Source: Tubiluchus corallicola
Lineage: Eukaryota > Animalia > Priapulida
Reading direction: 5' to 3'
NCBI GenBank assembly: GCA_030141605.1
Contig: JAQGDQ010000502.1
Span: 62,001 to 126,000 of the forward strand
DNA: 64,000 nucleotides
The number at the start of each line of letters is the position of its first letter. The first letter of the stretch is position 1. Position numbers and translations under genes: made by a program. Below are positions 6,223-60,400 of the stretch, piece by piece. Under the pieces are notes generated by a model. That model did no database searches. It worked only from the letters and a program-made list of their open reading frames with translations, and was not told where the DNA came from.

Positions 6223-7533
6223 CTATTCCACTTTCTGGTGTATTTCTTCACGCCGCTGTCTTTCTTCATAAGCTTCTTCATCGTCATAGACCTCGGCACA
6301 GCAGATATTATAGCAGATGAAACTAAGAATCATGGTAGGTAGGCCAAGCAGGATGCACGTCACTAATGGCTGATTGGTGAACATTTTGTACAATGTGGAA
6401 TAGATTTCGAAAAACATACGAGAGATTTTGTGATACCACCAGTTTCCGCCTCTGCCCGCAATCGAACCATCTGCAACTTCGACGAGAAAAGCTTGTATTG
6501 CACTTTCGGACATTTCACTTATATTACCACGGAGTTCATAATACTGATAAGTTGTTGCATTTAAGACAATTAAGCCAGGAACAGGTACAAAGTGCATTAC
6601 TACAGAATTGACTAAATCACCTCCATCTACCCAGGCAAACTGGAACTGGTCTGGACTGTGCCTCCGATATTCAAATGCCAGATCTTTAGTCTTTCGATAA
6701 ACTTTTTTCTGGTCTTTATAAATCTGGTCCGTCAATGTCTTTTTAATCACCAAAATAGCCAAATTCTTTTTTGAATGAAGAAACTCATGAAAATTACCAC
6801 TCAATATTTCAGGAAACAAAAGTAAGCGTTCTTTCAAAATCCATTCCTCAACAGAAGCTTTTGACAATTGGTCTTCTGCTGCCGGGTACCAATAATAATT
6901 TTCATCTTTAAACACTAAAATGGTTGGAATTGTTGGTGTTGGTACTGACTTTGGTACTTTGTCTGAAGATATGTAATAAAAATAACTTTGAGACATTCGC
7001 TGTGTGGCAATTTCACTATAAATATCCCATAGTGGTCCTTTTTCTAACCCCACATAGAGGAAAAAATGTCCATCAACATGCTTATCTCGAGCTTCATCAA
7101 AGCCATCTCGGTCGTTTATTTTCCTCAAAGCAGGCCCCATTGCTCTGTAGGCAAAATCGACGAGTTCACTTTTTGTACGAGCTCCATGAAAATTGTACAC
7201 ATCCTCACCCTTTACAAAAAGAATAGTTGGAAAACCTCCTACACTGAAAGCTCTGGCAACATCTGTGTATTTCGTAGCGTCAACTTTAGCTACCCGAATG
7301 TCGCTATGATATAGCGTTTCACCAACCTGCTCGTATATCGGAGCAAGTGACTTACAATGTCCGCACCATGGTGCATAAAACTTTATTAACCACATCCCGT
7401 CGTTACGTATTGCTGGCTCGAGAAATTTACTATTAAGTTCCATCACAGTTGCTCTACTTCTGGCGTCCGCGAAAGACAACGCCAAAAAAATAACGAGAAA
7501 GTGTGAGCAGAGTGCGAAAATTGACTTCCCCAT
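6223..7533 (-). CDS. TMX3: Thioredoxin-related transmembrane protein 3 (protein disulfide isomerase), single exon
   Basis: Signal peptide from the ATG at 7533 (MGKSIFAL..). Also FYAPWCGHCK thioredoxin active site, further Trx-like domains, a C-terminal TM helix (PLVTCILLGLPTMILSFICY), an acidic tail and Lys at position -3. The ORF track extends upstream to a non-ATG codon at 7632. Confidence 0.9.
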   Translation of the reverse strand: MGKSIFALCSHFLVIFLALSFADARSRATVMELNSKFLEPAIRNDGMWLIKFYAPWCGHCKSLAPIYEQVGETLYHSDIRVAKVDATKYTDVARAFSVGGFPTILFVKGEDVYNFHGARTKSELVDFAYRAMGPALRKINDRDGFDEARDKHVDGHFFLYVGLEKGPLWDIYSEIATQRMSQSYFYYISSDKVPKSVPTPTIPTILVFKDENYYWYPAAEDQLSKASVEEWILKERLLLFPEILSGNFHEFLHSKKNLAILVIKKTLTDQIYKDQKKVYRKTKDLAFEYRRHSPDQFQFAWVDGGDLVNSVVMHFVPVPGLIVLNATTYQYYELRGNISEMSESAIQAFLVEVADGSIAGRGGNWWYHKISRMFFEIYSTLYKMFTNQPLVTCILLGLPTMILSFICYNICCAEVYDDEEAYEERQRREEIHQKVE

Positions 7534-9164
7534 AAAGCTTGTGGTACTTAAAAACTCAAAATTAAACGTTTGCAGTAAAATTGGTATTAAAAATTTGTAA
7601 AATAACATCAACTGAGCGCAGACATGTTTCACTCGGCTTCCTTTCTCTCAGTCCTAGAGTTTCACGTTTTCTTACGACCATTGTCAACGACTCCGACAGG
7701 AATAAAGCTTCTTAAAAAATAAAAAAGTAAAATGTTTATAATAAACATTACTATGCCAAAGGTCCAACATACATCTTATCTTGCACCTGCAAGTATAGTG
7801 CTGTTTAGGTATGGTATGCAAATATCATGGTAAGCAAATATCAAGATAACATAGCAAATTTATTAATAATTAAGACATGAGAATCAATTATTGTGATTTG
7901 TAATGAGCAATACAGTATATTATCATCGATTCCAATCAAATCATAACCTTAATTGTGAGGCCTGAACTGAACAATTGATGTGGGTCGAACGTTACTGAAG
8001 TGCAAGAGTTGCATAGATAAAATCATTTGGAAATTATAGATAATAGGAGCATGAGAAGATCGGATTTTTCATAATAATTTTAACTTTTTATAAAGTGATC
8101 ATTATAATATCAAGGAGGTTTAGCAATCAGCAAAACAACACGCGAAAGGAGGAAATGGACAGACACACCAAAGCCACCAATTAACAGAATTATCTACTTT
8201 CTTTTTCAGCTGCTTTCTGCTTCTATTTCTTTCTCCTTTAAATTATTTTTTCTTTTACTACATGTATTTTGATATTCTTCTTCTTCGTCTTCTGCTACAT
8301 CTTTAGCAGGTTTTTATCCATGCAAATCTTCATTGAATTGTTGTATGCCACATAGCCTTTCACAATAAATGCACGCATCACGATATCCCCCCCTTCCCAA
8401 CACACCGTGAACTCCATCAGGATGCACCAGGATCATATCAATATGCCTATTATGTGTTTGACAGGCAATACATACACAATCTTAAGGGTTTTGCCACTTT
8501 CAATTGTTGCCATTTTGAATTTGACCTCTGACAGCCCACATATGTCAAATCTGATTTTCCTCCACATCTAAAACGAAGCATTATGATATCACATACTGCG
8601 TTATAATATTCATAATTTTCGCAAAAATTGCACTATTTTTATTCTTATCAGCTGTACTAGGTACCAGTGCTGCGACAACATACTATAGGTACCAGTTCTG
8701 CCATAATCATTGAATCGTCGCATATACATGCTCTGTTCACTTTCAAACTTTCTGGTCTCCATTTTCAAAATTTGTCACAGAATCTCTTAAAAGATGGAAG
8801 CAAAGATGGAGACATAATTTTTGCAAAAGTATAGGACAACATCTAAATGTGGACTTGCCACAACATTGTGCCAGTAAGGCTGTAATATGCTGATCATAAT
8901 AACTCTTCATGTGTTGCAATTGCTTTTCAATATTCATACTCTCGTTGAAAACAGTAGGCTACACTACGAAACAGTTGCGAAACTGAAAGTCTGAGGCCAG
9001 ATTGCAACTTTTATTTGCAATGTCTGCGCGCTCTCATTGACACCAGTTATTTATAAACTTTTCAACTTTTACTTGCATTTCTTAATATGAAAATGTTAGA
9101 ATTTCTAATAATGTTCTGTTGGTATTTTCTTTATCTGTATCGATCCTTTGCGTCAGCGCTTACG

Positions 9165-12400: not shown

Positions 12401-15400
12401 AAACAATGTGGACCTGTGCCTTACCGTGCATCGCAATGTGGTTCAGTAGCTGACAGACTCCAAGAACGTAACAATATTGAAACAGTTGAGGGCAGACACT
12501 TTAAACACTTACAAGACTGAAGCGTGTCTTTTTTTTCGAATATTCTCACTGCAGTAATAAATGGTAATGGCTTCTGTCAACCTGCTTTTGCGTCACCATA
12601 GAAAATAACGTTGTTCCATCTTGTAGATTTGACAACTACGATGCTAATATATGCGTGGGAAAAGGAGTGGTCAACTTAGGGCTTTGGGACACTGCAGGTC
12701 AGGATGAATATGACAGGCTAAGACCATTGGCTTATCCGCAAACAGTGAGTTCATCTTGCTGTGTTTTTCAAAGGGATGTTTGCAGTACGTAGTGCTAAAA
12801 AATGTTTGCACAGCTCTAGTATCACTATCTTTAATATTTACAATCTTAGAGCGTTCACTCCAATAAATACAGTAAAAAGCCCATACTCCAAAGTCTAAGC
12901 TGTTTTGTGGACTACATTTTAAAAGAACTCTTCTTTAGATTTATAGCAATATATTAAAATATTAAAATAATTTAAAATATTTAAATTACAAAACATTAAC
13001 TAATTACAAATTATAATCCAGCGCACCATGTAATCAATGAGCGCCTTTACTTGCCTGTAATTAAATCCGCACTTCTGTAACACTTAAAGCATAAGAAAAC
13101 CCTCCACTTACACACTGCCTTTTTGCATACAGGGCTTACGTCAGCAGTAACGCTGTATAAAACTTGTAAATTCAAACTCCCGCGATGACCGTTAGGCGCA
13201 GCCATTTTAATAGTAAGTCATTTCAAACAAGTTTGGATAACATTGCCTAAAGTTTGAAAAAATAGCGCACACATCATTCGTAGCGCACACACGTCAATAA
13301 CTAAGTTAAATTTTAAATTACTATATCTTCTCAACAAGATTTAAATAACTAATAATTTTCTTTTATAGTCATGTAAGTCTTTCAAATTTAACTGGAATTT
13401 TCTTCAGGTACCCTTTTTCTTGTCTTTTAAGCTCATAGTATGTGTAAGAGGCATTTGCTATGTTAAGACCAGGAACCTCCAACAGCTTAGTAGCGACTGA
13501 TGTATATTAATACTTAAGGGTTAGCAGTCAATAACCTCCACATGATGGTTTAATGAGATGTACGCTCATTACCCTATCAACATGTTTTGGCAGTAAGAAA
13601 CATGAACTGCTCCATTATTTGGACTAATGAGCATCCAGCTGCTTGCCAGAACTGCGAGATGATGGCTAAAATTAGTATACCTAATTTAGTACAAGAAATT
13701 GTATATACGGTGCAGCAGCAGTAACCGTCACTGTTAGATTTGGATTCGACTCGTATGCCTAACCTCCGTGTACCACTCTCTGCCAGGATTCTCCTCGGTG
13801 TCCAAGACGTGTCCATTAAACTCAAAATCACTGGCTATATCCAAGAAAAAGTAAGACAATGCCAATTAAGTAGATTTAAAAAACCAGCTCATTCCAATGA
13901 TGTTAACTTCTTTAATTCCAATTTTGTATATTCACGTCCCCAATAACTAAAAAAAGTTTCTTTAATTATAAATTCATAACTCATTCGTAAATTAAAACGG
14001 TGATCTACAACTAATTTTTGTTACGTATTATATATGCATGTAATATGTTTATTGTGAAATTGATGTAAATTTTGTCTTTATTATTATGTATTATGTATTG
14101 GATATATGTATGATATGTATATTGTAATAAATTGCTGTAAACTTCGTCTTAAGTTTATTATGTACTTTGCTTATATTGTCCCTATATATTATATTATGTA
14201 CCTATTGTACCTATGTTTATAAATGAGTATTTCTAGTTGTTTCTAGTTGTAGTTTTATGCACAGTAATTTATAGTTTTACACCGGACGTTTTAATAATTA
14301 TTAATTATTTTTGACACCAAGGACGTCATTTGTAATCCATTTTATTATATATATTATATATATATAAATATATAATCAAGAAAATATTTCAACGCCAAAA
14401 AACCAATAGTACCAACATTTATTATTCTAAATTGATTTCCCGCAATTTTTATTGCCATTCTTATGGCAGATCTTTTTCTGGTTATAGAATCTAGCTGCTA
14501 CTAATATTTTTAATATCTATAACCACAAAACCATGCCTGCAGACGTATTTTGTCGAAAAAAACGAGAAACAACTATTCTGATGCATTGGTATGACCACCG
14601 TGTTTTGCAGTTTTATTGGAGTTAATGCGCCCTTCAAAGGAACTTTGTTTTTGTTCATGTTTAAAATAATCATTGTCGTGTGTGATAGACTGCACATCTT
14701 GAATGCAAGTCTCTATTTGTTGAACAAGATGTTTGTTATCCAATTTGAGCTTAAATTATATTATTCCATGTAGCATTATTCTTTTGCATACTGAACTCTA
14801 CTTAGCCTTCTCTTCAATAGTAGTACCCTTCTAAACTACGACCAAAATATTGATATTTTTCAAACATTCATAAAAACACTGGTCAGTTTGTTCAATAGTG
14901 CCGCGAGCTTATGTTTTTGCATATTAGTACCTACCATAGCAATACTTTGTGCTTATGAATGTATGTAAATGGCACGGTAAAAATGTCACAGGAAAGAATG
15001 ACACAAACGGAAAAGCAGGTAAAAATGGCATACTTAATGACATGTGAGTTTAGGCTTAGCATTACTGGGATAATCGTTTTAGTTATTTTTAGTTGTTTCA
15101 GTTCCTCTGCCATGGGAGTTATGTTTCAACACAGCTTGCTTGTTTGCTTGTTTGGTTGGTTGTTTTTTGTCTGTTACATCAGTAAGGATATTTGCGCAAC
15201 AACTACCTAATAGATTTTCGTAAAACATTGTGGACAAGGCGGGTATTGAGTTCGGTGCTGTTGCGTTCTAAAAAAACTTGGTCGTCCCACCCCCTGTCCA
15301 TCGCCACTGCCCACGATGCATCATCCCTCAAATCTAGAGTTGTATTTACTAAACCTTTTTGCAGTATATCTATATACGTCAATAGCTGACCCCCTCTCGG

Positions 15401-18400
15401 CCTTTTTGTCGTTTTAAGAGTTTTACGTAATGTTATAGGAAGAGGAGACTCTTGAGGTAATCTTAGTGCATGCGCAAACCAATGCAATCGTTTTACTTTT
15501 ATTTGTTTACTCCAAGAATTCTTCTTTACCACATTATACAGGTCATCATTGAATATTCTGTCAGGCCATTAAATTGCTAGTAATTTCCTACAGAGACGTC
15601 TTTGAAAAGCGTCAATTTGTTTCTGCTACATAAATGGGAATCTGTTCGCCACTTGATTTTCGCAAAACTTGACCGAACTCCAGGTACAAAAAACATTCGC
15701 GAAGCACTTCATGGGCGTCTCAGAGGGATATTTGCTTGTTTAGTACTTATTTTTTGTTATCTTCGCCTGGACAAACAACATACTACGAGTTAGTTCCAGT
15801 TCCATTTAGAGAGATTCTCGCTTGTAAAACTTTGTACGGCTGTCTATTACCTTTGCTTATTAATTTGTATAGCCTTATAAGGTGACTTGGTATGTGAATA
15901 CGTATAATATTTGTCAGTCTATTACCATCGACAAAATTAATGGTGAAGAGGTAGATAAACACTATGTGGAACATACGTGCACTATTGATTATAAATGTAT
16001 ATAATGAACAAATATTTTGTGAGACTTTTGCTAGTCTATATAATACCAATACAGGCACATTTTTGTATGTTTGTTTTTTATCTTTGTGTTAAATTTTTTA
16101 TTCAAAAGAATCAGACAAATAAATTTAGGACTGTTAAGCTTTGACAGAGATCTACTTCCTACTGAGGTCTGTATTCTAACTTTACTATAGAAATTAATTG
16201 CATCAGTATAACATTTATGCCATTTTTCTACTTTTCCATGTGTGCCAATTTTTTCTGTGCAATGTTTACCATGCTATTTTTTCCTGTGCCATTGTTACCG
16301 TGTCATTTTCTCCTGTGCCATTTTTACCTGCGCACATCGTTATGTTTATACATGTCATCTAGTAATAGTTGTTACAGTGCCTGTATGCTAGTGTTTTGGA
16401 TATAAGCACGTGGTGCCTCCTGGTGTTTGTTTTCCCTAGTTTAGACAGGTGAGCTAGGTCAGGAAATAGGCCATTGGCCTCATTTCACAGTTAGAATATG
16501 AAAGTAGTGTGTCACCGGTATGCGGCAAAGATTTAAGTTTCATTTCTTCACATTTCGTCATGTCATATTATTGTTAATTATCATTATACCATTTACTTAA
16601 TGTTTTGACGTTGGTTTAGCAGAAAGAATTTTTAATTTTTCTTCAGATAAAACGAAGTCGAACGCATGTCGCGTACAGTTTTATATCTCAGTCCGTGTGC
16701 CTAGACGAGACGGCCATATTACTTTCGAGAACAGAACACCTGGACAAGGCTAGTACAGCATGGCTTCCGGGCAAGGACAATATTTGTTGAATCTAAATGA
16801 AGAACAGCTTCAGCAAAAAACCGTACAAGAGTTAAGAAAGTTGCTACGGGATAAGGGATTACAAGTCGCTGGAAGCAAAGCAGAATTAGTCCAACGAGTA
16901 CTGGACATCGAGATTACTGCAGAGGTAACCACGCCTACTTCAAAGAGTGAGAGTGTTAAGACGCCTCGTGACCAATCAGGCGAGGGGGGAGTGACGCAAA
17001 AGGACAAAACCACGCCCAGCAGTGTGAAGACTTCTGCAACAAACTTAAGCAGGCTTGATTTGCATGCCTTGAAAATTAAAGAACAGAAACTAAAATTACA
17101 AGCCATGGAAATCAAACATTTGCGCATGCAAAAGGCTAGTCAGGGGTCTGCTAGTTCAGATGTGGTTTCGCCTGTAGCCAAAGAAATGTCAAGTGCAGAA
17201 AAGGTCAATGAGTGGATTGAAAAGTCACACAAAGATGTCACAGAAGTCTCGTCACCTGAAGGGCTCATCAAACCCGAAGCTTACGTTACTATGGCTACCA
17301 ATGATAAATACGCCATAGGTGCTTTAGTATTGGCTTCTTCGCTACGTAATGTTGGTATTACACGTAGTTTAGCGATATTAATTACAACTGGAATTTCTAA
17401 ACCCGTTATGACGCAGCTAAGCGCCGCCTTTGACCACGTGGAGCTTGTGGAAGCTATTGACAGTTCAGATGTAAAAAGTCTGCAATTACTAGGGCGGCCC
17501 GAATTAAAGGTGACTTTTACAAAACTGCATTGTTGGAGGCTAACTCAGTTCTCAAAATGTGTATTTTTGGATTCTGATGTAATTGTGCTGCAAAACATAG
17601 ACGATTTATTTAGCTGGAACGAACTGTCAGCAGTTGCAGATACAGGCTGGCCTGATTGTTTTAATAGCGGACTTTTCGTTTTTGAACCTAATCTTGCCAC
17701 GTACAGTGAATTGAGGTCATTCGCTCAGTCAGATTCAAGCACATTCGACGGTGGAGATCAAGGTCTACTAAACCAGTATTTTAAAGCCTGGAATACAGCT
17801 TTTGATAAACGATTGCCATACAGGTATAATGTAGCAGTTAAAGGGACTTATGGGTATTTACCAGCTGTGAAGCAGTTTCGAGAAAGTGTCAAGGTTGCTC
17901 ATTTCATGGGTCCTAGTAAGCCCTGGGACAGTATACGCAGCATTTATCACAAGCAAGTGGCGCCAGCTACAGGTGAAACAGACTTTGAATCTGAAATGTT
18001 AAATATTTGGTGGTCACTTTACATTCATGAGGTCGAACCAAACTGGCCTCATGAATTAGAACTAATAAATAAAGCTAATGTTCAGCAGCACATTCCTACC
18101 CGAACAAAACTCAGTCCTGACGCACCTGAATTTGCCACTCGCATACATAACAGGAGCAGTGTTCAACAGGCTTCGTTACCTGAACAAGCTTCACACAATG
18201 CATTTAGCGGAAACACACTTTCGCGCTCGCCTCCCACAAATAATTTTGGCGACAATAAGCAATTAATGGATCTCATTTTGGAAGGTCAGCGGCAGCATTT
18301 AAATATGTATTGTGCGATGCAACTGCCAAATGTGGAGCTAGAGAAATATGACGGAAATATTATGAATCTCTGGCGCTTTATTCGTCGGTTCGAGACTTCG

Positions 18401-21400
18401 GTAGAAAATTATACACATGATGACGGGGCGAGATATACCAGGCTTTTACAATTTTGCACGGGCGAAGCAAAACGGGTTGTCGAAAGTTGCAGTTATATGG
18501 ATCCGCAGATCGCATACAGTCATGCTAAGCAAATGCTTATCGAACGTTTCGGGTCACCCTTTATTGTAACGCAAGCGTGGTTGGCTAAAATAAATGAGTT
18601 TGCAGTCATAAAAAATAATGAAAAAGAAAAACTCAGGGAATTTTCTGACTTGTTGATTGGTTGTGTAGAGACATTAAAGGCCATGGACAATTTAGCCGAA
18701 ATAAATACACAGACAAGTTTGCTTCAAGTCATTAAGAAACTTCCATTCCGTTTGCAAGATAAATGGAGAGACGTTGTTACCAAGTTAAATAAACATGATG
18801 GCAGAAATCCTACAATTTACGACGTGGTGGGATTTGTCAAAGAGGCGGCTGAAAAAATGAACCATCCTGTGTTTGGTGACCTTGCAACCGGTGGTCAAAC
18901 GAACATTACAAAACGCAACAATAAATTAGCAACTAGAAATTTCGCATGCACTACCTTTCGAACAAGAAGTTCATCCAGAGAAGAAAAATCGAGTCAAACA
19001 GGCGGAACGTCTAAGGATAGAAAATTAAGCAGTAGAGATGTCAGAAAATGTGTGTTCTGCAACTCAGCCGAGCATGTTTCTCTAAAAAACTGTGAACAGT
19101 TTACAGACAAGTCGGATGAAGAGAGACTACAGCTTGCTCGGAAAAGTCGTTTATGTTTTAACTGCTTACAGAAAGGGAACCACAGAGCTGGAAGCTGTTA
19201 CAAACCAGGTTGTACAAGACAGGGATGCAGAAGAAAACATTCTGCTCTGCTTCATGATGCTCTGGAGAAGTGGGCTCCTTCCAATGACGAGAGGTCAACA
19301 AATGTTGAAGCAACAAGTTGCGCTGTTACTACAACCAAACTGTCAACAAGGGCTGTGCTCCCCATCACTCCTGTTAAGGTACAGGTGCAAGGCGGACGTC
19401 CAATTCAGACAATGGCTTTGTTGGATCCAGGATCAACTAATACGTTCTGTTCCAAGGCCATATATGATGAGCTGGGAGCTGTTGGCAAGAAACAAGTCGT
19501 GTCACTGACTACAATTGAAAAGAAGCATTCAAAAATAAATACTTCTGTGACCGAGTTGTACGTCAGTAAGTTGGATGGATCAAACAAAATGAAACTTCCC
19601 TTTGTCTTTGTCAGGCCATCTTTGACGTTGGATGTTGACTATTTGGTAGACGAACAAGACATTAGTAACTGGCCTCATCTCAAAGATGTTCCTTTGATGC
19701 TAGCTGATTCACGCGAACTGCAGCTCGGGTTAATCATAGGACAGGACGTCTCTGATGCATTGATGCCTTTAGAAACACGCTGTGGGCCAAAAGGAGCTCC
19801 GTATGCAACAAGGACTAGACTTGGATGGACATTAAATGGCCTGATAGGAGGCGGCAATGAGGACGCTAAAAGGCTGTCAAACAACCTTCTTCAGGCAGAA
19901 CAGGTTGCCAGCCAGTCTGATCAATTACAGCGACAAGTCGAAAAACTTGGAAAATGGACGCTGTTGGCGATAGCATACAGTACTCCCGTGACGATAAGAT
20001 GGCGCTGCGTATTTGGGAGAAATCCATCACCAAAAGAAATGGTCACTACGAATTGGAGATACCTTTTAAGTCTAGTGATGACAACATTCCTGACAGTTTT
20101 CAAATGGCTTCAAAGAGGTTGGCAAGCCTTCGCTGTAGACTCAGCAAGAATAAGTTGTTGCATGAAAAATACACCCAAGCCATGGCTGATCTGCTCGAAA
20201 AGGGATACGCAGAAGAAGTTGTTGAACATGATACGAATGTTGCAACATGGTACTTGCCACATTTTCCAGTTTTTAACGAGAACAAACCCGAAAAAACTAG
20301 GATCGTATTTGATTGTTCGGCAACAGAAGACGCAGTCTCTCTCAACATGTTGGCAGTACAAGGTCCAGATCTGACTAATAAATTGCTTGGTGTCCTGCTA
20401 CGCTTTCGAGAGTATCCAGTAGTAATCATGGCTGATGTTCGTGAGATGTTTCACCAGGTGTACGTTGCACCGAAGAATAGGGACATGTTGAGATTTCTCT
20501 GGTGGAAGGATGGAAACCTAGATGCTCCACCCTCAATATTTCGAATGACAGTCCACCTTTTCGGCGGTGTGTGGTCGCCCAGCGTAGCTTCATTTGCTCT
20601 CCAACAGACAGCTAGAGATAACGTCAACTGTTTTGATGAGCATACATTAAATACGGTGTTACATAGCCTCTATGTCGACGACCTCCTTAAATCTGTGGAA
20701 ACTGCAAAAGAAGCAATCCTTTTGATGTCAAAATTAACACAGATTCTAGACACTGGAGGTTTCCACTTGACCAAATGGATAAGTAACGACAGAGACGTAT
20801 TAGCATGTGTGCCAATTGAAGAACGAGGAAAAAACATTAAGAACCTTGATCTAACCCAGGACGATCTACCAAATGAACGAGCCTTAGGAGTTAAATGGGA
20901 TGTCAAAAGCGATATGCTTGGCATTCAGGTTAAGCTGCGAAAAAAGCCAAGCACCAAGCGGGGACTACTTAGTTCATTAGCAAGCACCTATGATCCCCTA
21001 GGCATGGTCTCGCCTTTCATTTTACAAGCGAAAAGACTGTTTCAGAACGAATGCCGGATCCATGAAAAATCATGGGATGATAGACTGGAAGGAGAGACTG
21101 AGAAAAGTTGGGATAAATGGAAATCTGATTGTCCTGCGCTAGAATACTTTACTCTAGACAGATGCCTGAAGCCAAGAGACTTTGGAAGAATTGCAGTCTT
21201 GCAGCTGCATCACTTCAGCGATGCATCCCAGTATGCTTATGGCACTGTGACTTATGCTCGGATGGAAAATGCTGACGGAGTTGTACACACAGCATTTGTA
21301 ATGGCAAAGTCTAGGCTAGCACCTATAAAAGGCCTAACCATACCACGCCTTGAGTTGTGCGCAGCAGTATTAGCCTCAACTGTCGACAAACAACTGAGAA

Positions 21401-24400
21401 GAGAATTGTCCATACCCATCAGCGAGTCCGTGTTTTGGTGTGACAGCACTATAGTGCTTCAATACATACGCAACACCACAAGACGTTTCCATACTTTCGT
21501 GCAAAATAGAGTGACTACCATACTAGAAAGTTCGTCGCCTGTTCAGTGGCATTACATCAGTACCGCAGATAATCCAGCTGATGACGTATCCCGCGGAATG
21601 GACGCCAATGCCTTAGTAAAATCTCAGCGTTGGAAATATGGTCCTAGTTTTCTGCGAAAAGGCCAACATGAATGGCCGCAGCATGATCCGAGCAAAGTAA
21701 ACGATGAACTTAACGACGATAAAGAAGTCAAGCAGACGACATGTTCCACTACTGTAAAAGATATACAGGATAGAAACGACACAATTAGCAAGCTCATTGA
21801 ACATTTTTCGTCATTTTACAAGCTCAAGAAAGCAGCAGCTTGGATTCTTCGTCTGAAGGACATTTTGCAAAAGAAGATCAGAGGAGAAAAACCTGAAGTA
21901 CCTCCAAAGTTAACAGTGCAAGAGCTGACAAGAGCCCAAGATGCATTAGTAAAATTCGTTCAGACTCAGAACTTTGACATCGAATATAGGGCGCTTACAC
22001 AAAAATCTGCTAAATTGATGCGCATCCCTAGATCAAGCAGGTTACGAAAACTTGATCCGTTCATTTGCGAGAAGGGTTTGCTACGTGTTGGTGGACGACT
22101 GAAGAATGCATGTCTGCAGGAAGGCGCCAGGCACCCATTGATATTACCGAAAAGGCATAAGCTGTCAGAGCTAATCATTCGTCATTACCACGAAACGAAC
22201 GGACACATTGGCAGGGAACATGTCATAGCTTTAGTAAGAAATGAATTTTGGATAATTCATGCACGAGCCTTGGCACGCAAAGTCCTGTACGAATGCCGAC
22301 ATTGCAGGATCCGCAAGCCATCTTTCCTTGATCAAAAGATGGCAGATTTGCCTATTGACAGACTACAGCCATCAGACGCTTTTACCACTATTGGCATTGA
22401 TTGTTTTGGCCCGATAGAGACCAAGAGAGGCCGCTCACACATTAAACGCTATGGAGTCATCTTTACATGCCTAGCTACACGCAGTGTTCACTTGGAAGTC
22501 CTATTTGACATGTCTACTGATTCGGTTATAAAGGCGATCCACAGATTTTGCTGCCGCCGAAGGAAGCCAGACAAAATCAGGTCAGATTGTGGGACTAATT
22601 TTGTAGGAGCAAGCAGAGAGCTGAGAAAGTCTATAGCCGAGTGGAACAATGACGTCATACATTCAGAGCTTCTTCAGCGGCAAATAGAATGGGAATTCAA
22701 CCCACCAAGAGCCCCACACATGGGAGGTGTTTGGGAGTCTCTCATTAAGAGTGTGAAGAAGATTCTAAACTCTCTTTCCAACGAACAAACCTTGGATGAT
22801 GAAGGCTTGGCAACCCTGTTTTGCATAGTTGAAAATATAGTTAATAGCAGACCGCTAACTACAGTTTCTGACGATGTTGATGACTTCAATCCGTTGACTC
22901 CGAATCACTTTCTTCAGATGAGCGCAGTTCCAAACCTGCCTTTGGGAAAGTTTTGTCAGGCAGATCTCTTTCGACGAAAGTGGAGACAAATACAGTATCT
23001 CTCGGATATCTTTTGGCGCAGATGGTTGACTGAATATTTGCCCACTCTTCAGACTCGAAGCAAATGGAACAAGGAGCAGAAGAATGTTGAAATAGGAGAC
23101 ATCGTATTAGTTCTGGATGAGACACCAAGGAATCACTGGATGCTAGGACGGATCATTGAAGCACGGAAAAGCAGTGATGGACTAGTGAGAAGTGTGACAT
23201 TGAAGACTAGAGATGGGACTCTAAAACGACCAATTCATAAAATAAGTTTAATCGAATGTAATAATTAGTTGATTTTGTTAAGCATTCATAAGCTGTATGT
23301 TTAAGTTAAATTCTGAAGTAGAAGTATGTCAATTTAGTCAGTCATGATATGTTATTACACTGTTGGTTTCCTTTAATTTTGTAAATGCTGCAGGAGAGCA
23401 TTTAAGGAGGCGGTGTTTTGGATATAAGCACGTGGTGCCTCCTGGTGTTTGTTTTCCCTAGTTTAGACAGGTGAGCTAGGTCAGGAAATAGGCCATTGGC
23501 CTCATTTCACAGTTAGAATATGAAAGTAGTGTGTCACCGGTATGCGGCAAAGATGTAAGTTTCATTTCTTCACATTTCGTCATGTCATATTATTGTTAAT
23601 TATCATTATACCATTTACTTAATGTTTTGACGTTGGTTTAGCAGAAAGAATTTTTAATTTTTCTTCAGATAAAACGAAGTCGAACGCATGTCGCGTACAG
23701 CTAGTGCGTCTTCCTGAAGGCTCTTTATCAGTGCAAACTGTGGCCAAAGGTTGTTTGTTTTTGATAATAAAAATACGGTTATAAAATAAAGATGATCGTG
23801 TTTCAGTGTCAAATAACGAGCATTATACGTCGTAGGTTTTCGTACAGTCTGCACCACTCTGGGCACTCGACTGTTGTGGAGTGTCCTGCAGCAACCACAC
23901 CCAACAGCAGAACTTATTCAACGTGGATCATTGTAGCAAAACCAGAACTTTCTCGTTGTCTAAAGTGAGACACTGGATCAGCAGAGGTGTTTCAGTCACG
24001 TTCAATATGTTCACGTTTATGGCAGAGCGAGAACATCTGGAACGGCTATTTTTAGACCTGGCAGTTATCCATCCTAGTGCTGACTAGGCAGGAGGTTGTT
24101 TAACTTGAATACAGCAGACAGTTATCACTTAACTATTTACCATAAAAGTATATCAGTTGTTACAAAATACAAAGCAGGTTCTTTAATTTTCTTACTTTCG
24201 TTCTCTAGGATGTGTTCTTAATATGCTTCAGTCTCGTCAGTCCCACCTCTTATGCAAATGTTCTCCACAAGGTAAGAGAGGCATTATTTATTTTAAAATT
24301 TGTCAGTATACAAGCTAGACAAATTTGTGTCACGCACACCAGTGTGCATTGTAAGCCAGCTAAACAGTCTGTTCAATTCATCTCTGTTGCATGTTTCTGC

Positions 24401-27400
24401 AGGGTAATTAATTGGTCAGTGTGCATCAATTGTGCACCAGACTGTTTACCTGATGCACAATGCACAGGACGCCATTCCAACTACCCTGCAGAAACATGTA
24501 ACAGATATGAATTGAACAGTCTGTGCATCAGTGTGCATTATAAACCAGTTTAGCAGTCTGTTCAGATCACCTCGGTTACACCTTCCTGCAGGGTAGTTCA
24601 TTGAAATGGTGTTCTGTGCGTCCGTGTGCATTGTAAACTAGCTAAGTTGTCTATTCTATTCATCTCTGTAAAAGCTTTCTACATGGCAGCCAGACAGGCG
24701 TCCTGCTCACTAGTGTGCACCGTAAACTAGCCAAGCAGTTTGTCCAATTAATCTCTGTGACATCTTTCTTCTGTGTATCAACTTTGGATCCAATCCAGGG
24801 TTGAACTTCACAAGAGATTCTTCAAAACATGTAGCATCATAGGAGCACAACCTGCCATATGATTAACGTTAAAGTGTCTGGTAAAGTTTCCTGGAAGTTA
24901 GCCTCTGGACCGGAAGTTTGATGCAGAGATAATCGACCATACTACTCAACGAACTGAAGTAGGTTGATGATTTGGTGAGGCATTTAACATACGTTGCCTA
25001 CAGTTGGGTCTCTGGATGGCTGAGTTATCTCAAAAAATTATTTTATTAATAACACAAACAGCTACAACTGGATATATGTTTGGGGTAATTCTTTTTCTCC
25101 CTTAATCAACAGAACTAAAGATACTTCATATTAATTATAGTGGATCATTATTCGTTAATATGCCCGGGAGTATATTACACCCAAAATTGTAATATTATTG
25201 TATCTGACAAAATATTTTATTAACAGTGGTATCCGGAGGTATCTCATCATGCACCTAAGGTTCCAATTGTTCTGGTGGGAACGAAGTTAGACTTGAGAGA
25301 GAACAGCAAACAGACGGACTCTTCACTTAAGGTCTCATACGCCAAAGGTATACAATAAAATAAATGTAATTAGTTATCAGTCAGCCAAAACATTTGGCCA
25401 CTCCGTAACTCACACTGATCGGTCATACCAAAGTAACAATGCTATATTCAGCAGTTCACTGGTTCAGTGCGGTTCCCCGGCTTCTCTTCCCTTTGCCAAG
25501 ACGAGCACAACCTAGAGTTCTTATCATGTCTGATGTCATTACATGTGAAAAATGTCTAAAGGTAAAATAGCTAAGACATCAGTATATTGCAGAACACAGG
25601 TGAGTTTATTTATACAAATCAGTTAGTCATACAAATTATCCACAGCACATGTTGATTCTATGCTCTCTGACAGCCAACTGCCCAGGTAAGTTTTCTCTGA
25701 AGCAAGGAAGCCAGCAATTCTATGAAGGGTAAATGTTATGCATACTACATAGTTCAAGGATAAAAGTTTAGACTGTATATTAAGAAATAGACTTATTTTA
25801 CAGCTGAAATTTCTTGTGTGGGATTTTTAATGTTTTAACCAGAGACTACAATAATATGACATAATGAACAAAAATAATGACATATGACATAATAATAAAA
25901 AATAATGACATATGACATCGTGAACTTCACGACACTCCGACCAGGAAGTTGGAAATAACAAACTATTTGATACTTTAACCTTTTAAGTCATTTAACTTTT
26001 ACAAGAAATAAATTTGTTACATTTCTTAATCATTTTAAGAATAACATCTAACATCTTAAGTACGAGATGGCGCCACCAACCAGTTTGGGCGCCGTGGATA
26101 AATACGAATCACACCATTGCAAAACGGAGTATTTGGGCTATGTACAAAGAGGGTAAGTTTTTTTAAATCTAATTTAATAGTGACATTAAATTTCAAAGTA
26201 ATTTTGTATATAATTATCACGCTACATTCGTAACAAGTTTCATTACACACAACTTAACTATAAACTTGATATTTCTCTATTGAGTTTCACTACAAATAAC
26301 ATTCAATCTCTAGATTATAAAATCATCATGACGATTTGAGTACAAAGTATCGATTTAGGATACAAATTCGTAACAAAGCGCATCGATTTAGGATGCAAAT
26401 TCGTAACAAAAGGCATCGATTTAGGATGCACACGATTTACCAGTCGTTAGATTTAAATTACAAGTGGATTGCTAACCGAGGACATGCACAAGTACTATTA
26501 CTATTAGCAAGTATAATAAGCAATGACATCAAGCGTTGGCTACTCTTTGTGTTTATGATAAAGTTTGTACAGCATTTGCTTGGTTCGCCTGTAGGTTATG
26601 CTGTACATGGTCTATCATACAATTAGACACAATTTATCAATAACATTTCTATCATTACTTTTTTTCAGGTTTATAACAAAGAGCACGTTTTGTGCACAAG
26701 GTAAGTATAAGGTAACTCAGGTAAGTAATATTTTAACAACTTAACAAACAGTGTTAACAATAACAGCAACAAGTTGTTATTCAAATGATGTTAACAACAA
26801 TAGCAATACTAAACAATGCAAGGTATAAGGTAACTTAGGTAAGTAATATTTTAACAACTTACTAAGCAGCTATACAAACAGTGTTAACAATAACAGCAAC
26901 AAGTTGTTATTCAAATGATGTTAACAACAATAGCAATACTAAACAATGCAAAATTTATTTACAAAATCTTTAATGTTTCTGATTTTACAGGTAGATTTGA
27001 TCAAGGTGGATCTTGGGTTTCAATAGAAACAATTCGATATAAGTGGAAAGTTTTCCGACATTTGCAGGATCCACGTGGTAAGTTTGAATTAGAAATCAGG
27101 ATTACATCATTATCGTTTGACGGAATAATTACAACATTTTTCATAGAGTTTGGCTTTCTAATTTGTGTATATGCATACTGTGTCAAAGATAGCCACATGA
27201 TTTTAAATGGAAATTTAATTCCATACATGAAAACTTTTATGGCTCTAAACATGAATGCAATAAGAAATAAAAGCCAATCCAGAAAGGAAAAGTCATTAAT
27301 ATTAATAACTTTACCAACAGCTTTATGACATGTGACAATGTCAGAAATAGGACACCCACTTTCAAAGAGTACTTCCTTTTTAGGGGGTATTTCTGACTGT

Positions 27401-30400
27401 ATTTGGGACGTCTCTTCTGAAGCCAGTGTAGGAACTGAACTGGAAACAGGCGAAACATCTGGTCGTGTTGTCTGATAGTTATCAGTTACAGACACTGGAC
27501 CTGTTTGATGTATCTCAGATTTGGAGCAACTTAATGTACTACTACTATTCAGTAATGAATCCGTTAATGTGCAATCAAGCTCAGGCTGAAGACAAAATAA
27601 TGAGTTTTCTGAACAAATTATAGATTCATTGTTCGCCAAGGTGTCTGTTTTTTCAACTACCCCTGTAAGTATATAGCCTAAAAGGCTTGCATACAGGAAG
27701 AGGCCGGGTGACACTTCCTGTTTTTCTGCTCCTAGAATTTTGAGGTAGTTATCACATCCAATTAATAACTGCATATCACCTTCAAGGTTCCCATCAGGAA
27801 GAGAATCGGCAAGTAGGCCCTCCCATGGCTTAAGTTTTGAGTACACTTGGGCTGGAAGAGAGGGGCGACCTCTGAATTTTGCAATAAACGGGACTACTCG
27901 AACATCGATATTAATTCTAGTGGAATTATTTTTGCCAAACAATGCAACCTTTGCTTGATGACATCGCACAGGAACATACCCTTTACAAGCGAATGTAGAA
28001 ACATTCACATAACTAGGATTTTCCAATTTCAGATTTAACTTTTTTGCTAATGACTCTGTAATGTATGTGCCATTACTACCTGTATCCATCAAACCTCTAA
28101 CTGTAATGCCTGATTTAGAATTATTAGAGACATCAGAGTGGCACATTCTCACTAAAACTGTCTGCATAAGTACAGCTTCTGTTTCTGAATTAAACATGAC
28201 AGTGTCACTGAGTAAATTTTGTTCTAATTTTGCCTCGACAATTCTGTTGTTTTCAACTTTGTCACAAAGTGAAACATGATGTTTTTGGCCACACACAAAA
28301 CATGTAAATTTGCAGTCAACCTCAGTGTGTTTACTAGAAAGACAGACTTTGCAACGTTTACGCTTTTCTACTACTTTCAGTTTTTCTGCTATGGTAAATT
28401 TGTTGCAAAAGCCTGAAGAATGGTTTCGGTTGTCACAATATAGACAGGGCATTTTAATGCGGTTATTCTGTGACCTCTTTGCCTTGTCGTTATTGTTACC
28501 ATTACCAGTAACTCTTTCTGAACTTTTTGGTTTGTAAATTTTAGCATGTTTTGATTTTTCAGCTGCAAATGTAGTGAGAGATAACTCAGAGTTACAAGCC
28601 ATGTCATCGTTGCCAACTGCATTGTATAGAGGGAATGTACTGTCGCCTGCTGTAAGTACACTTTCTTTAATGTGAACAGATGCTGGTCTTTGATTGTTTC
28701 TACTAATGGGTTTCTTTGAAATTTCTTTAAGGCTTTGAAGCCCACACTCATTAGTAGAAATCTCAAAGTTGTTAACATATCGATACATAGTATCTATTAA
28801 TCTCTCTAATTGCCAATTAGAACCAGGAGTAGCATCTGGACAAAGGTTTCTAAGCTGAAAACCCATAGTTATGGGAAGTTTCTTAAGAATGCCTGAGACA
28901 ATGTAATGATCATCGACTGGACGACCTAACACTGTCAATGACCTTATAATGACCTCTATGTCATCAAGAAACCTTCGTAAATCGTTGGCATTGTTTTTGA
29001 CGGGTTCAATGTCGTCAAGTTGTTTCAGATAATTTGTCACCATGTGATCAGTTCTGCCAAAGCGTTTCATCAAGTGACCAACAGCAGCAGGATAGTTATT
29101 GGCAGTTCTACGGTATGTCTTGATAATTCTATATGCATTCCCTTTCAAGCAGCCCAACAAGTAATTGAACTTTTTACTATCCGTTAAATCGGGTCTTGAG
29201 TGTATTTCATCATTAAAAACACTCCAAAATTCTTCAAAATCATCCTCACCCTCCCCCGAAAAGGAAGGCAATTTAAATTTTGGCAATCTAGTATACACAG
29301 TGCTTGCATGACTAACGTTCCAGGGATTTAGCTGTGATGTCATATTAGGCACAGCAGAAACAGGTGTGCTTGATACTACAGGTAATCTAGTATACACAGT
29401 GTTTGCATGACTGACGTTCACAGCATTTAGCTGTGATGTTATATTAGGCACAGCAGAAACAGGTGTGCTTGATACTACAGGTACAGGTTCACTGACCTTC
29501 AAGTGACAGGTTTCTAATGACCTAATTCTGGCTTCAATCTTAGAACTAAGTTCAGACAAATTTCTGTTCAATGTAGTTTGTGAAGCAAGAAATTCTTTAA
29601 CTTCATCCAAATGGGAACTATCATCTGAACTACAATAAATATATGATAGCTTGTCATACAACTCTGTGAGTTTTTCAGTCGAAAATCTCAAATCAGTAAT
29701 TGCAGCATTACATCTGTCAACAAAGTTTTGATAATTAGCAATACATTCGTCAAATTCTAAGTCTAACAATGTAGTACATGTGAAAAACACCTCACCATAG
29801 TGCTGTGAGTTTATTTTCAGGTTCTGGATCAGTATCTTCACCTCCAGCTGGTGTCCATGCAATGGATCTTTGTCTGGAACCACCTTCGGAATTGTTCCAG
29901 TTGCAGCTGTTGGGGTGGCTCCATGTGCTGGGGTAGCTGGAATATGTAGTTGCTGCTCATAGTCCGGTTCCTCGTCGTCTGAGTCCTTAGAACCATGGTC
30001 CATAATGGTCACTCCTTGCTTTGATGAGTCCTTGTTTGGTTGCATTGGCTGGAATAATTGTCCAGTCCTTGTGTCATGACCTTTAGGTTCACCCTCCCAC
30101 GGCGGCGTATAAAGAATAGTCTTGTCGCTTGTGGTTGTTGTGGTGGCCATACTCAAACAAGGTTAACTTGCAGTCGTCTGGATTCCAAATTAGAAGCACC
30201 AATACTGTCCATATATTTAGCACTCAGTATAAACAGGAACAGAGTAACTGTATCACTTGGTTTGCAGCCTTATACCAAGCAAACTGATTTCTTTTCCAAG
30301 CAGAGCAACTGTATCACCTGGTTTGTAGCTTTGTAGATATCAAACTGATTTTTTTTTCTTTCAAATAAAGTCCTAGCATAATTTCCTTGGTTCTATAAAC

Positions 30401-54467: not shown

Positions 54468-57400
54468 ATGTCAGCACCCATAAAAATTGGATCTTTAGTT
54501 GTATTTCTTGTATATTTTGCTTGTTTTAGTCCTGCAGTTGAGGCAGCACGTGGTAGCAATATCTTGTACAGCGACTTGGCCACTTACAGGTATTTTGACT
54601 TTGCTTAAAAGTTAGTTGGTAGTTAGCTTCATCAAATTAAGTCTTCAATTCAATTTTCAATTCAATTATTTATTATCTCCGTTAGAACGATAAAAATACA
54701 GTATAAAGAATACATGGAATATTTTGAAGCAAAGGAGAAGGGCAGCGAAGAACCCGTAGGTTATCAAGTCAGCCACCCTTAAATAGTTATGATTAAATAA
54801 ACTTAATTATGGCGTCGTTATCAATTTAAATTTGTATTCGGTTGATGTGTGTTAATTTGGCAATTGAATGATAGGTATCGTAATACTGTAGAACATATAG
54901 TTTAAATAACGAAAGATTTACAATTCTAAAATACTATGAATCATGCGAAGCAAACACAATAAAAATAACTTGAGATTTTTAAGATAACAGAATATGCATA
55001 ATTTGAGCATTAACTAAAAAATCCGGCAAAAAAACAAAAAACAGTAGAATGATCAACCAAAGCTGTCGAGAAAAAAATATAATAGATTAAACCAAGGAAA
55101 AATAAGGCAAATATAAGTCATACAAAACAAAACAAGAAACAGAAGCAAATAAGAAAAACAAAACTGAAATGTTGTAATAATAACATCAATGACTGAATTT
55201 GTTGAGAAAGAAAATATAATAAATTAAACCATCGAAAAACTATTTCAACTGTAAATCAGACAAAATGAAATCAAAATATAACAAAAACTTAAACAAAATC
55301 TTTAAGTGTCGTAGCAATGAAAAAAATATGTATAGTATTACAAGTATATAAGCAAAATGTCTCATTTATTTGTATCCTGCAATAAGTTGTTTTTTATAGT
55401 TTAAAATTAACTTTTTGTAGTTACTGGACTTTAACTGGTCTGGTAATGAATTCCACAGCAAAGATCCTTGGTGTTTTAAAGAATTCTGGCCTTTAGATGA
55501 GTTAAATCTTTCAATAAAATAAGATTGGGTTGTAGCAAACCTAGTAGAGTGGTGATGCATGTGACATGCTAAAGTATAATAATTGCTGAAGAGATCTGGA
55601 AGTGAATTATTTTTGAATTTATGTACAAACTTGAGCAATTCTAATTTATACAGATCATGAACTTTTAGTAGATTTAGTTGCAAATACAAAGGTGTTACAT
55701 GTTCCCTTTTGCTAGTAAATGTTATAAGTTTGATAATCTTGTTTTGTTTAGAAACCAATGATTTTAAGACCGATGCTGAAGCACTACCCCAGGCGAGAAT
55801 GCCATAACTCAGATATGGCATGACAAGAGAAGAATATAAGAGCCGTAGTGCATCTACATTTATGTAGTGTCGTATTCTAGCTAATACTCCACTTAATTTG
55901 CTAATTTTGTTGACTATATGCTGAACATGTGTTTTCCAAGTAATTCTACTATCTATAAATATACCAAGATATTTGATTTCTTGTGTAGATTGAATAGTAC
56001 AACCTCCCATATTTATGTTTAAACTATTGTTATGTTGCTTGTTTCCAATTAACATATATTTTGTTTTTTTATAATTTATCGATAGCTTATTTGCTTGCAT
56101 CCATTTATTAATATTGTCCAGTTCCACATTTACTGAATGTTCTAATGTTTTGATATTTTGGTGTGATAAAAATAAGTTTGTATCGTCTGCAAACAATCTG
56201 GTGTTAAATTGCGAATAAGATGGCAGATCATTAATATATAAAAGAAATAACAATGGACCCAATGTAGAACCCTGTGGGACACCACAGGTTATATCAGCAA
56301 GTTTAGACTCTGATGAGTCAATAGACGTAAACTGTTTCCTATTAGTAAGGTAAGACGTGAAAAGCGCAAGAGGACGTCCCCTGATACCATAGTATGATAA
56401 CTTATATAACAAAATGTCACGTTGTACTGTGTCGAATGCTTTCGATAAATCTAAAAATATAGCACAAGTAGTTTTCCCCTTATCAATATTCGCAAGGAAG
56501 TTTTCAATTATTTCTGACACAGCTAAAGATGTAGAATGATTTTTTCTGAATCCAAATTGGAATTTAGTTAAAATTTGTTCTTTTAAAAGAAATTTAGCTA
56601 GCCTAGAGTAAATTAATTTTTCAAAAATCTTTGATATGGGAGATAAGAGAGATATTGGCCTATAATTAGTGGGATTAATGGGAGAATCAGATTTGTAAAT
56701 CGGGATTATTTTTGCAATTTTCAACACGTCAGGATAGATACCCTCTTCTACACATTTATTGAACAGCATAGTTAATAATGGAGTAATAATGGACTGTGAA
56801 ATTTTAAAAAACTGATTCGAGATGTTTTCGGGTCCTGCTGATTTATTGGTTTTCAATGCAGCAATAGCAGAAGAAACTTCGTACTCGATAATTGGCGCAA
56901 AAAAGAAGGAGTTCTGATTAGGCATTCTAAGGAAAGAATCAAATGTTATTGGAGTAGGTGGTACCTTTTTTACCATATCAGAACCAACCGATGCAAAATA
57001 ATTATTCATGAATTCACAGATAGCAGGGGGTTCCGTAATCTGAGCATGATTTATTACTAGTTTGGTTGGAGTTATGCGCTGCTTGTTTTGTCCATTGATC
57101 AAATCATTCAATGTTGCCCAAGTCTTTCTAATATTAGTTTTATTATCATGTAGTAAAGTACAATAATAATTTCTTTTGGCTAAATTTATGAGATGATTAA
57201 GTTTATTAGAAAATTGTTTATATTGATTAATTTTTAAGATACTAGTTGTAGTCTTACAGTCCTTGTATAATCTACTTTTAGTTTTATTGACACAAGAATA
57301 CCTTTAGTTAACCATGGCTTGGAGAAAGTTACTTTTTCAGTTCTTGACAATGTCTTAAGTGGGGCATGTTTATTAAGAACTTCTTGATATATTTGGAAAA

Positions 57401-60400
57401 AGGTACAGAAGGCAGAATTAGTTGGCACCTCGGAAAAGTCAACAGCATCGATCTTATTTTGCAAATCCTCCAGAAATAAAATCATGTTAAAATTCCGTTT
57501 ATCCCTGATTTTAATTTTCTTTTTAACTATTAAGTTACCAATATTTTTAATAATAGCAAACACTGGTAGATGATCCGACACTTCATAAAGTATAATACCA
57601 GATATAATTGGATTAGATAGATTATTTGTATATATATGGTCAATAAGTGTCTGAGAATGGTGTGTTATTCGAGTTGGTCGTGTTACTAATGGAAAAAACT
57701 GATTAGAGTAAAGTAAATTCAAATAATCTGCAATAAATGTTTTTTCTTCTATTTGCATAAGATTTAGATTAATATCGCCACAGATATAACAAGTCTTTCC
57801 TGACTTGTTAATGGCTGATAATATAGAGTCCATCTCGCTGTGAAAATGATGGACATTGATATTTGGGTGTCGATAGATCACTCCAAATGTGATTGGTTTC
57901 TTTTTACCAGGTACTTCAACATCAAGCCACATATCCTCAACTTGTATACATGATTTTTGAGTAATGCTATTACCATTCTTACTAGTAGTTACTATTTCTG
58001 TATCACAATTAATTTTGTACTCATCTTTTACTGTATACCTCAAGCCCGATTTAAGATAAATAGCTACGCCACCTGCGCAAGTTTTAGAATCAACATGCAA
58101 GAAAGTATAGTTAGGTAAACTCGTTATAAAAGATTGATTAATTTCGTTCAATCTTGTTTCCGATATTCCAATAATATCAGGAGGAACAGTAAAGTGCATG
58201 AGTACATCTAGCATATTAGAAAATCTCTTCTGAATACTATTGAGATTAAAATGTACTATTAATAAATCATTGTTAGACTTTTTTAGATCAGAATTTGTCT
58301 CTAGTGCATGCAAACTATAGTATTTACTATCAAACCTGGTAAGATGTGCATCAGGATCAGCATCATCCCATTTTGGTTTTGCAAGTGAAGGAAAATCAAG
58401 TAAAGAAGACAGACAGTATACATTTGTTAGATTTGAAAACAATTCGCATAATTCAGCATCATCAATACACTGAAAAGGCAAAGATTCATGTGTACATTTT
58501 AAACAAAAGTAATTATCAGAAGACAGAGCATAGTGATTAAATTCATTCACACTCAACATGGTACACTTGAGGTGTACCCACATGTTACAAACGTCACAAC
58601 AGATACATTTTTGGTTATTTTTACAAGGTTTACAACAGGTTACACATGGAAATTTTTCCAATAATTAATTATGCTAGAATATAAATTTTGTGATGCAATA
58701 ACACCTTGTATTGAGTTTTAAAGTTTACCTAGGTCCTCCTCACATTGAATTTCAATGACTTGGCTTGAATCATCTCTTCGCAAGAACATTTTCCGGTATT
58801 TTGTCCAGCAGTACTTCATTTTGTGGTCCTTAGCATAGTCCCTACATTGTTTGTGTAGTTTTCTCCTTGTTGAAGTCAAGGATTCGTTTATGTAGATGCG
58901 GTTATCAGTATACGATGCATAGTCAAGATTTTTAGTGCTTCCGGCATTTCTTCTAGCACCATAAAGTTCATCCCGTTTGTCACGTCTTGCGAATTTTACA
59001 ATAATTCGTGGAGGCCCTCCATTTTTAGGTGCTGCCAATCTATGTGATGTACTAATATCTTGCGGGTGCACTTCCACTCCCATATTTCTGGCTACACTTA
59101 GCACTATGTCATTTGTAACTTCATGAGGAATTACAGGAATTCCAGCTATCTCCAATGTGTCTTTACGCTCATATTGTTCTAGTTTGTCTAGTTCACTTTC
59201 GGTAGTTTTTATTCTGTTTTGTAATGTTTTAACAGTAGTTTTCAGTACCTTGTTTTCGTCTCTCAAATGTTCCATGTCTTGTTGATATTTGTTCATTTGT
59301 TCTTGAAAACCATCAAATTTGTGGCTTAGAAAATCTTGCGATTTGGTTACCTCAGCAAGTTCTCCCATAAGGTCATCAATCCTCACAACTTTGCTACTAA
59401 TAAACGTCAGTTGCTTCTGGAAACCTTCTACAAATTTTTGAATGTCTGAAGTAGGCTGCACTTGTCCAGCTAAATTAGATGCTGAATCCAAGGTTATTTC
59501 CGCTGTATTACAAGCACTCATTTCTCTGTCACCTTGTTGTGTAGGCATCAGCTGCTCAGTTTGCTGACTAATCACTCTCGGATTCTTCTCGACCCGATTT
59601 AGGCATAAATCTTCAGACGTTTTGCTTGCCTGGCGTGTCAATACTCCTACTCGTTTTGGCATTAGCCTTTGCAAAGTAAATTCTGATTAAATTAACTGCT
59701 ATTCCACTTATTTTAACAATTTTGTTAACTTTTGCGGTAATTTAAAAAAAAACACAACCGCCATGTACGACTACAGCGCCGTCCTTTAACAGTCTTGCTG
59801 TTAAAGGAAATTAACATAAATATTGTTAAATCTGTAAATACTGCCCGCTTGTGTTACGTGTTATGTGTGGTAATTGTATGCAAACATTTCATTAGTGTGT
59901 TTTTTATTGACTGAAACTCTTGATGGCTACACAGTCATTATGTGTCTGTCTCAACCACATATAGCAGAAGATCACGGTTCAAATCTAGCCTGTATTCCAA
60001 CTTTTTTGCATTTTTGGTTTTCAAGTTTGATTTCAAAATCAATTGATTCTCCCACCATTATAGTACCCTCATAGTGATGAACGAGATACATCATCTTATG
60101 CAAATTTAATAATTTATATTTTGTAGTAAAAATCACACATATTGCATATTTTGTTGTGTTGTGGAAGCCATGAGTAATACATGATGCGTAGACTGTAAAG
60201 GCTGTGAACAAATACATTGTGAATCTTGCAAGCTGCAAACTTGTGTTCTCTTAAACTTTTAAATTTACTTTTATTTAGAGATCGGGTGAAGCACATGTTC
60301 AGTCATGCCTATGATAGTTACATTCATAATGCTTACCCGTATGATGAGCTGCGACCATTATCTTGTGACGGATTTGATACATGGGGAAGGTAATGTATTG

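Follow-up and report, generated by a model that had tools for sequence, protein, structure and literature searches.

Can the structural protein of a retroelement carry an enzyme of sugar metabolism, and would the element have a use for it? This question is raised by a Bel/Pao retrotransposon of the priapulid Tubiluchus corallicola, for which a sequence-only reading proposed that Gag is fused in frame to a complete glycogenin domain. The window, that is, the whole 64,000-nt stretch of DNA that was analysed, was compared with known elements, with glycogenins and with public sequence runs.

The element and its surroundings

The element is an LTR element of the Bel/Pao group, 7308 bp in total (about 7.3 kb), and lies in sense orientation (Table 1). 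Given its near-identical LTRs and the GCTAG on both sides, it is a true and recent integration, and the matched LTRs originally described around the domain are found there with a single mismatch. Belpaoviridae have LTRs of 0.2-1.2 kb and a total length of 4.2-10 kb, a Gag with capsid and nucleocapsid, a Pol in the order PR-RT-RH-IN, a polypurine tract of about 10 nt and an 18-nt primer-binding site for tRNA-Arg or tRNA-Gly (PMC8742986). The element shares with this family the LTR length and total size, the capsid and nucleocapsid of Gag, the polypurine tract, the Pol order of protease, RT, RNase H and integrase (LLDPGS, YVDD, FSDAS, HHCC and rve) and the Pfam markers Peptidase_A17 (E 2e-47) and DUF5641 (E 3e-29). 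Judged by the features tested, namely size, Gag and Pol domains, it is a Bel/Pao element. Its peculiarities are the enzyme domain in the Gag linker, the lack of any visible TGG-type primer-binding site directly behind the 5' LTR (16678-16720), although the insertion is recent, and, in this copy, a shift of frame downstream of the protease.

Table 1. Positions of the element's features in the window
Feature	Position	Strand	Remarks
Left target-site duplication	16387..16391		GCTAG
5' LTR	16392..16677	+	286 bp, TG...CA
ORF1, Gag and protease	16760..20374	+	1204 aa
SAP domain	16808..16903	+	aa 17-48; Pfam PF02037, E 4e-8
Glycogenin catalytic (GT8) domain	17276..18046	+	aa 173-429; intronless, in frame
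LSPDAPEF motif	18110..18133	+	aa 451; counterpart LNPxAxxW in glycogenin-free Gag relatives
DUF1759, Bel/Pao capsid region	18350..18787	+	aa 531-676; Pfam
Three Cys/His nucleocapsid motifs	19049..19255	+	aa 764-832
Aspartic protease motif	19418..19435	+	LLDPGS, aa 887-892
ORF2, -1 frame	19921..23268	+	RT (YVDD), RNase H/Peptidase_A17, integrase (HHCC, rve), DUF5641
Polypurine tract	23404..23413	+	purines 9/10
3' LTR	23414..23699	+	1 mismatch against 5' LTR
Right target-site duplication	23700..23704		GCTAG

The nearest relative, P0266, is a single ORF of 2119 aa, to which the element is 37% identical in Gag and 48% in Pol. At about 19940, past the protease, homology to P0266 leaves ORF1 and continues in the -1 frame, so the copy in the window probably cannot make Pol, or has an assembly error at the frame change. 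The shift falls between protease and RT, where ORF1 and ORF2 overlap. The site is a short A run, in which no canonical slippery heptamer is seen by eye, and a contig from a second sample (S2, below) crosses the region with one gap, the exact place of which is not listed.

The element lies inside a Rac/Rho-like host gene, flanked by two of its exons, which have motifs near 12680 and 24210. This GTPase gene spans 12660-32000 on the plus strand, with exons near 12680, 24210, 25270 and 31970, and has two LTR elements in successive introns. A functional link between the element and the Rac-like gene was considered and rejected as coincidence. A second Bel/Pao-type element lies at 25543-30850 on the minus strand; it has LTRs that are 99% alike, a TGG-type primer site and an open Gag-protease ORF of 1049 aa (27001-30150), and is 23% like the Gag of the first element. 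It is likely non-autonomous, given that it is without RT and integrase. Elsewhere in the window, an intronless ORF of 461 aa for a TMX3-like thioredoxin (6223-7608, minus strand) neighbours a gene with long introns and is possibly a retrogene. A LINE at 55366-59662 on the minus strand has an ORF1 with a Baculo_FP_2nd domain, and its endonuclease and RT are in two separate ORFs.

The glycogenin domain

SAP, Glyco_transf_8 and DUF1759 are all recognised by Pfam in the single frame of ORF1, with the Glyco_transf_8 match at aa 176-392 (E 1e-20). From 17276 to 18046 there are no stops in the Gag frame, compared with 18 and 26 in the two remaining frames. The proposal of a complete glycogenin domain in frame within a Bel/Pao Gag is borne out by these results. 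The domain aligns with rabbit glycogenin across the whole catalytic domain (E 2e-78), and it keeps K255, D271-x-D273, N302, D330, D333, Q334, Y364, H381 and K387, as well as an exact KPW. Each residue picked out in the sequence-only reading (K255, D271, D273, FDGGDQ at aa 329-334 of ORF1, Y364 and H381) lies where it was said to lie and aligns with the rabbit protein. The columns of D271, D273 and H381 are 98-99% conserved among 198 host glycogenins, and Y364 aligns with the acceptor tyrosine, Tyr195 in human glycogenin. The lysine and histidine of human glycogenin-1 are numbered K86 and H212. The spacings of 16, 93 and 17 residues given earlier are all correct, but the 93 from DxD to Tyr equals the human value only because an insertion and a deletion, each of a single residue, offset each other. 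Residues named for the human protein include Tyr195, Asp102 and Thr83 (PMC7046021, in part).

A predicted model of the domain (pLDDT 88, pTM 0.89) resembles solved glycogenin with a TM of 0.85-0.86, constructs truncated at residue 270 included. By alignment, the start of the insert corresponds to about residue 3-5 of host glycogenins, and its end to the end of their catalytic domain. The glycogen-synthase-binding motif, found in 131 of the 198 host glycogenins, is absent from both ORF1 and ORF2. Human glycogenin is a dimer that binds glycogen synthase through residues 300-332 (PMC9188544, in part). Because this synthase-binding tail is missing, the insert is called a glycogenin-derived domain and is not classed as a glycogenin. 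With the animal protein (rabbit and human glycogenin-1, PDB 1LL0 and 3T7M) it shares the fold, DxD, metal histidine, acceptor tyrosine and borders; it differs in lacking the C-terminal peptide, in lying inside Gag, in being at most 56-58% identical and in its long branch.

The insert has no poly(A), no internal duplication and no 3' tail of a host gene, and tblastn finds no second glycogenin piece in the window. The insert does not stand out from the element in codon or base composition (GC3 of 0.35 versus 0.38-0.43).

The five Gag relatives in the alignment (31-37% identical) have no glycogenin at the corresponding place. They have variable low-complexity sequence, then a common LNPxAxxW motif and then the capsid region, whereas the window element has an enzyme of 257 aa in this variable linker upstream of the capsid and the motif after it. 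The LSPDAPEF motif marks the resumption of ordinary Gag; it is also a candidate PAM2-like motif.

Presence in independent sequence data

Four public DNA runs, from two samples (S1 and S2) and two studies, contain 38-57% of the element's sampled words. S2 comes from another study, and S1 is possibly not independent of the source of the window. When the runs were mapped on 15500-24500, 29-30 of 30 bins were covered, with most pieces 90-99% alike. The domain is present in several versions across both studies, known copies differ by 1-10%, and at several places in the domain two versions occur inside one run. One S1 version looks decayed, with amino-acid changes making up 5 of its 7 differences. 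Misassembly, which the sequence-only reading had named as a possible undoing of the fusion, is opposed by contigs of both studies that span the domain-to-Gag junction: an S1 contig covers 17870-18105 and an S2 contig extends at least 109 letters to each side of 18045. A further S2 contig crosses the first half of the domain with one gap. For the 5' junction, no contig crossing by 31 letters is among those listed, with 4913 further pieces beyond the listing. No RNA run with the element is listed, and two runs labelled as the same species contain almost none of its words, which is no proof of absence.

In run X2, the depth of the domain is 373-638, similar to that of the Gag-Pol body, and that of the host flank is 152-261, where depth is not copy number. 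Since the domain is as deep as the Gag-Pol body, domain-free full-length copies do not stand out. On this evidence the fusion is almost certainly a real trait of an element family. The depth of the S1 runs at 16704-17305 and 23025-23325 is 2-4 times that of the element body; such depth is a weak measure and hints at internally deleted relatives that retain the LTRs and the start of gag. Host-flank contigs of runs X1 and X2 end at the target duplication (23704) with 109 letters left over, which suggests that sample S1 carries no insertion here; the joint is not among the listed contigs.

Divergence and selection

The domain is at most 56% identical to any glycogenin, both in the best 120 of 2441 matches and among 355 full domains, and at most 58% on a trimmed alignment, the host's own glycogenin being outside the sampled set. 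For host glycogenins, the median best match is 78%, and only 8 of 198 are as distant from the others as the domain is. Nor is the domain a one-off copy nearly identical to glycogenin, another outcome that the sequence-only reading had said would count against it, given this divergence and the several versions found. In a quick IQ-TREE search of 60 rows, the terminal branch of the domain measures 1.9 and the median is 0.24; with FastTree the values are 0.68 and 0.135, and the branch is third longest of 277. The two sets of figures differ because model and sampling differ. Equal isolation is seen in six of 276 host sequences, including a sponge, a fungus and an aphelid. Given that such sequences exist, a divergent host gene outside the sample would, if captured recently, give the same conservation.

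The differences from host glycogenins are not spread evenly. The domain retains 68 of 72 near-invariant columns, and 30 of 41, 33 of 66 and then 14 of 75 in successively more variable classes. Uniform neutral change from a typical donor would be expected to leave about 54 of the 72 (P = 1.5e-5). In simulations of neutral change (2000 runs each), 4% of copies remained free of stops at 10% base change and 0.2% at 20%. Because the near-invariant columns are kept beyond neutral expectation and the reading frame is stop-free, the domain is judged from its sequence to have been shaped by purifying selection. That this selection took place in the element is quite probable, with an unsampled, fast-evolving host gene as the other candidate site.

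Differences among copies give a weak signal of selection on the domain. Among 463 differences, the 40 best supported were considered and 34 were classed, with the exclusion of six outside the homologous part of ORF1. The 16 listed for the domain comprise 9 that change an amino acid and 7 that are silent (P = 0.04 for equal rates and 0.18 if a transition bias is assumed); none of them hits a named catalytic residue. In the rest of Gag, 5 are changing and 8 silent (P = 0.002, or 0.02 with an assumed transition bias).

The trees place the donor lineage differently. The domain stands in an open fork in the quick IQ-TREE search, and with FastTree it joins, loosely (support 0.83), a group that includes P0289, a sequence that is sister to Brachionus in the IQ-TREE tree. 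The FastTree grouping is possibly long-branch attraction.

Relation to known systems

No fused glycogenin-Gag was found in the best 120 of 434 protein matches of 662-2107 aa, among the 6 matches longer than 2107 aa, in the best 150 of 12,134 representative proteins, or in 25 matches scanned with Pfam, long N-terminal extensions included; NCBIfam likewise gave nothing. The ESM Atlas gave no usable match for ORF1, and viral contigs gave one distant GT8 piece and no relative of Pol. In metagenome contigs, the best 80 of 524 relatives are all at most 56% identical, and none of 81 loci encodes Gag or Pol. As no fused relative was found in other species, the age of the family cannot be read from its spread. 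A search of the literature, with Repbase, Dfam, GyDB and subscription journals outside its scope, found no glycogenin or other glycosyltransferase in an LTR element, and the passages of PMC8556966 on Bel/Pao clades mention no such domain. The earlier remark that glycogenin is unfamiliar in LTR-retrotransposon Gag agrees with these searches of proteins, contigs and literature. We could not find the pairing of glycogenin and Gag described; the capture of enzymes by LTR elements as such is already known.

The AlkB of orchid Ty3/Gypsy elements is likewise a host enzyme that became established in an LTR lineage and has preserved its cofactor residues, and this m6A demethylase is active in vitro (PMC9289625, in part). 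AlkB is a separate ORF that acts on RNA, whereas the domain here is a predicted sugar transferase inside a structural polyprotein. The family-8 glycosyltransferase fold also occurs in other viruses of eukaryotes, as p13 of baculoviruses (PMC4133818, in part) and p13-like proteins of giant viruses. As far as these sources extend, those are stand-alone genes of large DNA viruses, outside a capsid polyprotein, and not orthologues of glycogenin; viral GT8 proteins are 11-24% identical to the domain over full-length matches and 29-33% over short stretches. Gat1 of Toxoplasma and Pythium also consists of one glycogenin-like domain without the tail and dimerises in the same way as glycogenin (bioRxiv 10.1101/764241, in part). 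However, Gat1 is a galactosyltransferase of Skp1 and far more distant from the domain than glycogenin is (92 versus 267 bits, TM 0.71 versus 0.85).

Origin and possible function

An old capture from the spliced mRNA of a host glycogenin is the likely origin of the catalytic domain. Because the insert is intronless and ends at domain borders, the capture would have proceeded by template switching onto that mRNA. From the residues retained, the domain is rather probably catalytically active, and the chances are somewhat better than even that it is an active enzyme for which the element has been selected.

If so, the likely reaction is that of glycogenin. Glycogenin transfers glucose from UDP-glucose onto Tyr195 and lengthens the chain to about 7-12 alpha-1,4-linked residues (PMC7046021 and PMC13671788, both in part), and chain extension is described as relying on contacts across the dimer (bioRxiv 10.1101/764241, in part). 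Multimerisation of Gag would pair two domains and provide a high local concentration, and the paired domains, with Mn2+ and UDP-glucose, would assemble on Y364 an alpha-1,4-linked chain of about 7-12 glucoses. Self-glucosylation at this tyrosine is likely because all of these glycogenin residues are kept. Since the synthase-binding tail is missing, synthase would not be recruited directly, and the product would be a short oligoglucan rather than a glycogen particle. In the immature particle of retroviruses, the part of Gag that precedes the capsid points outwards, and maturation may cleave it off. The oligoglucan may then coat an outward-facing Gag N-terminus, or tether Gag to glycogen particles of host germ cells, and either would improve the odds of transmission of the element. 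That a coat or tether is the benefit to the element is a tentative proposal. The roles put forward in the sequence-only reading, namely particle coating, oocyte targeting and interference with host glycogenin, are likewise candidate functions. Equally speculative is the fuller picture of self-glycosylating capsids, in which each Gag has an active domain and an alpha-glucan-dressed particle passes as a glycogen granule, or rides with one, into germ cells.

Other explanations of the domain were weighed against that of an active enzyme selected in the element. The most serious is that it is a recent passenger, a piece of mRNA from a fast-evolving or unsampled host glycogenin that is tolerated in the flexible Gag linker and owes its conservation to inheritance. 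The sampled set does not include the host's own glycogenin, host tips of 0.55-1.0 occur in the same FastTree tree, and known copies differ by only 1-10%, with amino-acid changes among them not clearly suppressed and one version apparently decayed. A passenger of this kind is nonetheless unlikely, given that both junctions preserve the frame and coincide with the limits of the catalytic domain, that several versions occur in two studies at a depth about that of the Gag-Pol body (again, depth is not copy number), and that so few host sequences are equally distant from the rest. It is a much smaller worry still, and very improbable, that the fusion is an assembly artefact or a processed glycogenin pseudogene in one dead copy; the lack of a fused form in the protein collections searched and the frame shift before RT would fit, whereas contigs from two studies cover domain and element and span the 3' junction, and the insert is free of poly(A), internal duplication, host 3' tail and stops.

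Two further possibilities accept that the element uses the domain but give it another task. An active enzyme might have changed its acceptor or donor, so as to glycosylate a host defence protein or a part of the particle in trans. Gat1, acting on Skp1, is a precedent for the same fold and dimer with altered donor and acceptor (bioRxiv 10.1101/764241, in part), and the domain, compared with host glycogenins, has diverged more quickly and is without the synthase-binding tail. Still, the acceptor tyrosine, FDGGDQ and KPW are retained exactly and the domain scores as glycogenin well above Gat1 in both bits and TM, which makes a changed specificity improbable. Alternatively, catalysis could be irrelevant and the domain a module for Gag dimerisation or for the sequestering of host glycogenin. 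This would draw on the dimeric nature of glycogenin (PMC9188544, in part), and a tail-less partner could conceivably uncouple host glycogenin from synthase; the retention of D271, D273, H381, K255, D330, D333, Q334, K387 and Y364, needless for pure structure, renders a structural or decoy role rather remote. An active, element-selected enzyme is thus the reading we prefer.

Implications

Domains fixed by LTR elements include a chromodomain for targeting and AlkB for m6A control (PMC9289625, in part), and they tend to betray a pressure that the host puts on the element. No link between the assembly of retroelement particles and glycogen metabolism was found in the literature searched; a glycogen-priming enzyme in Gag, if true, would tie the two together. 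It would also offer a natural glycogenin that has no tail and evolves under a new selective regime. A self-glycosylating capsid, should it prove true, would be the first retroelement structural protein to make its own sugar coat in the cytosol.
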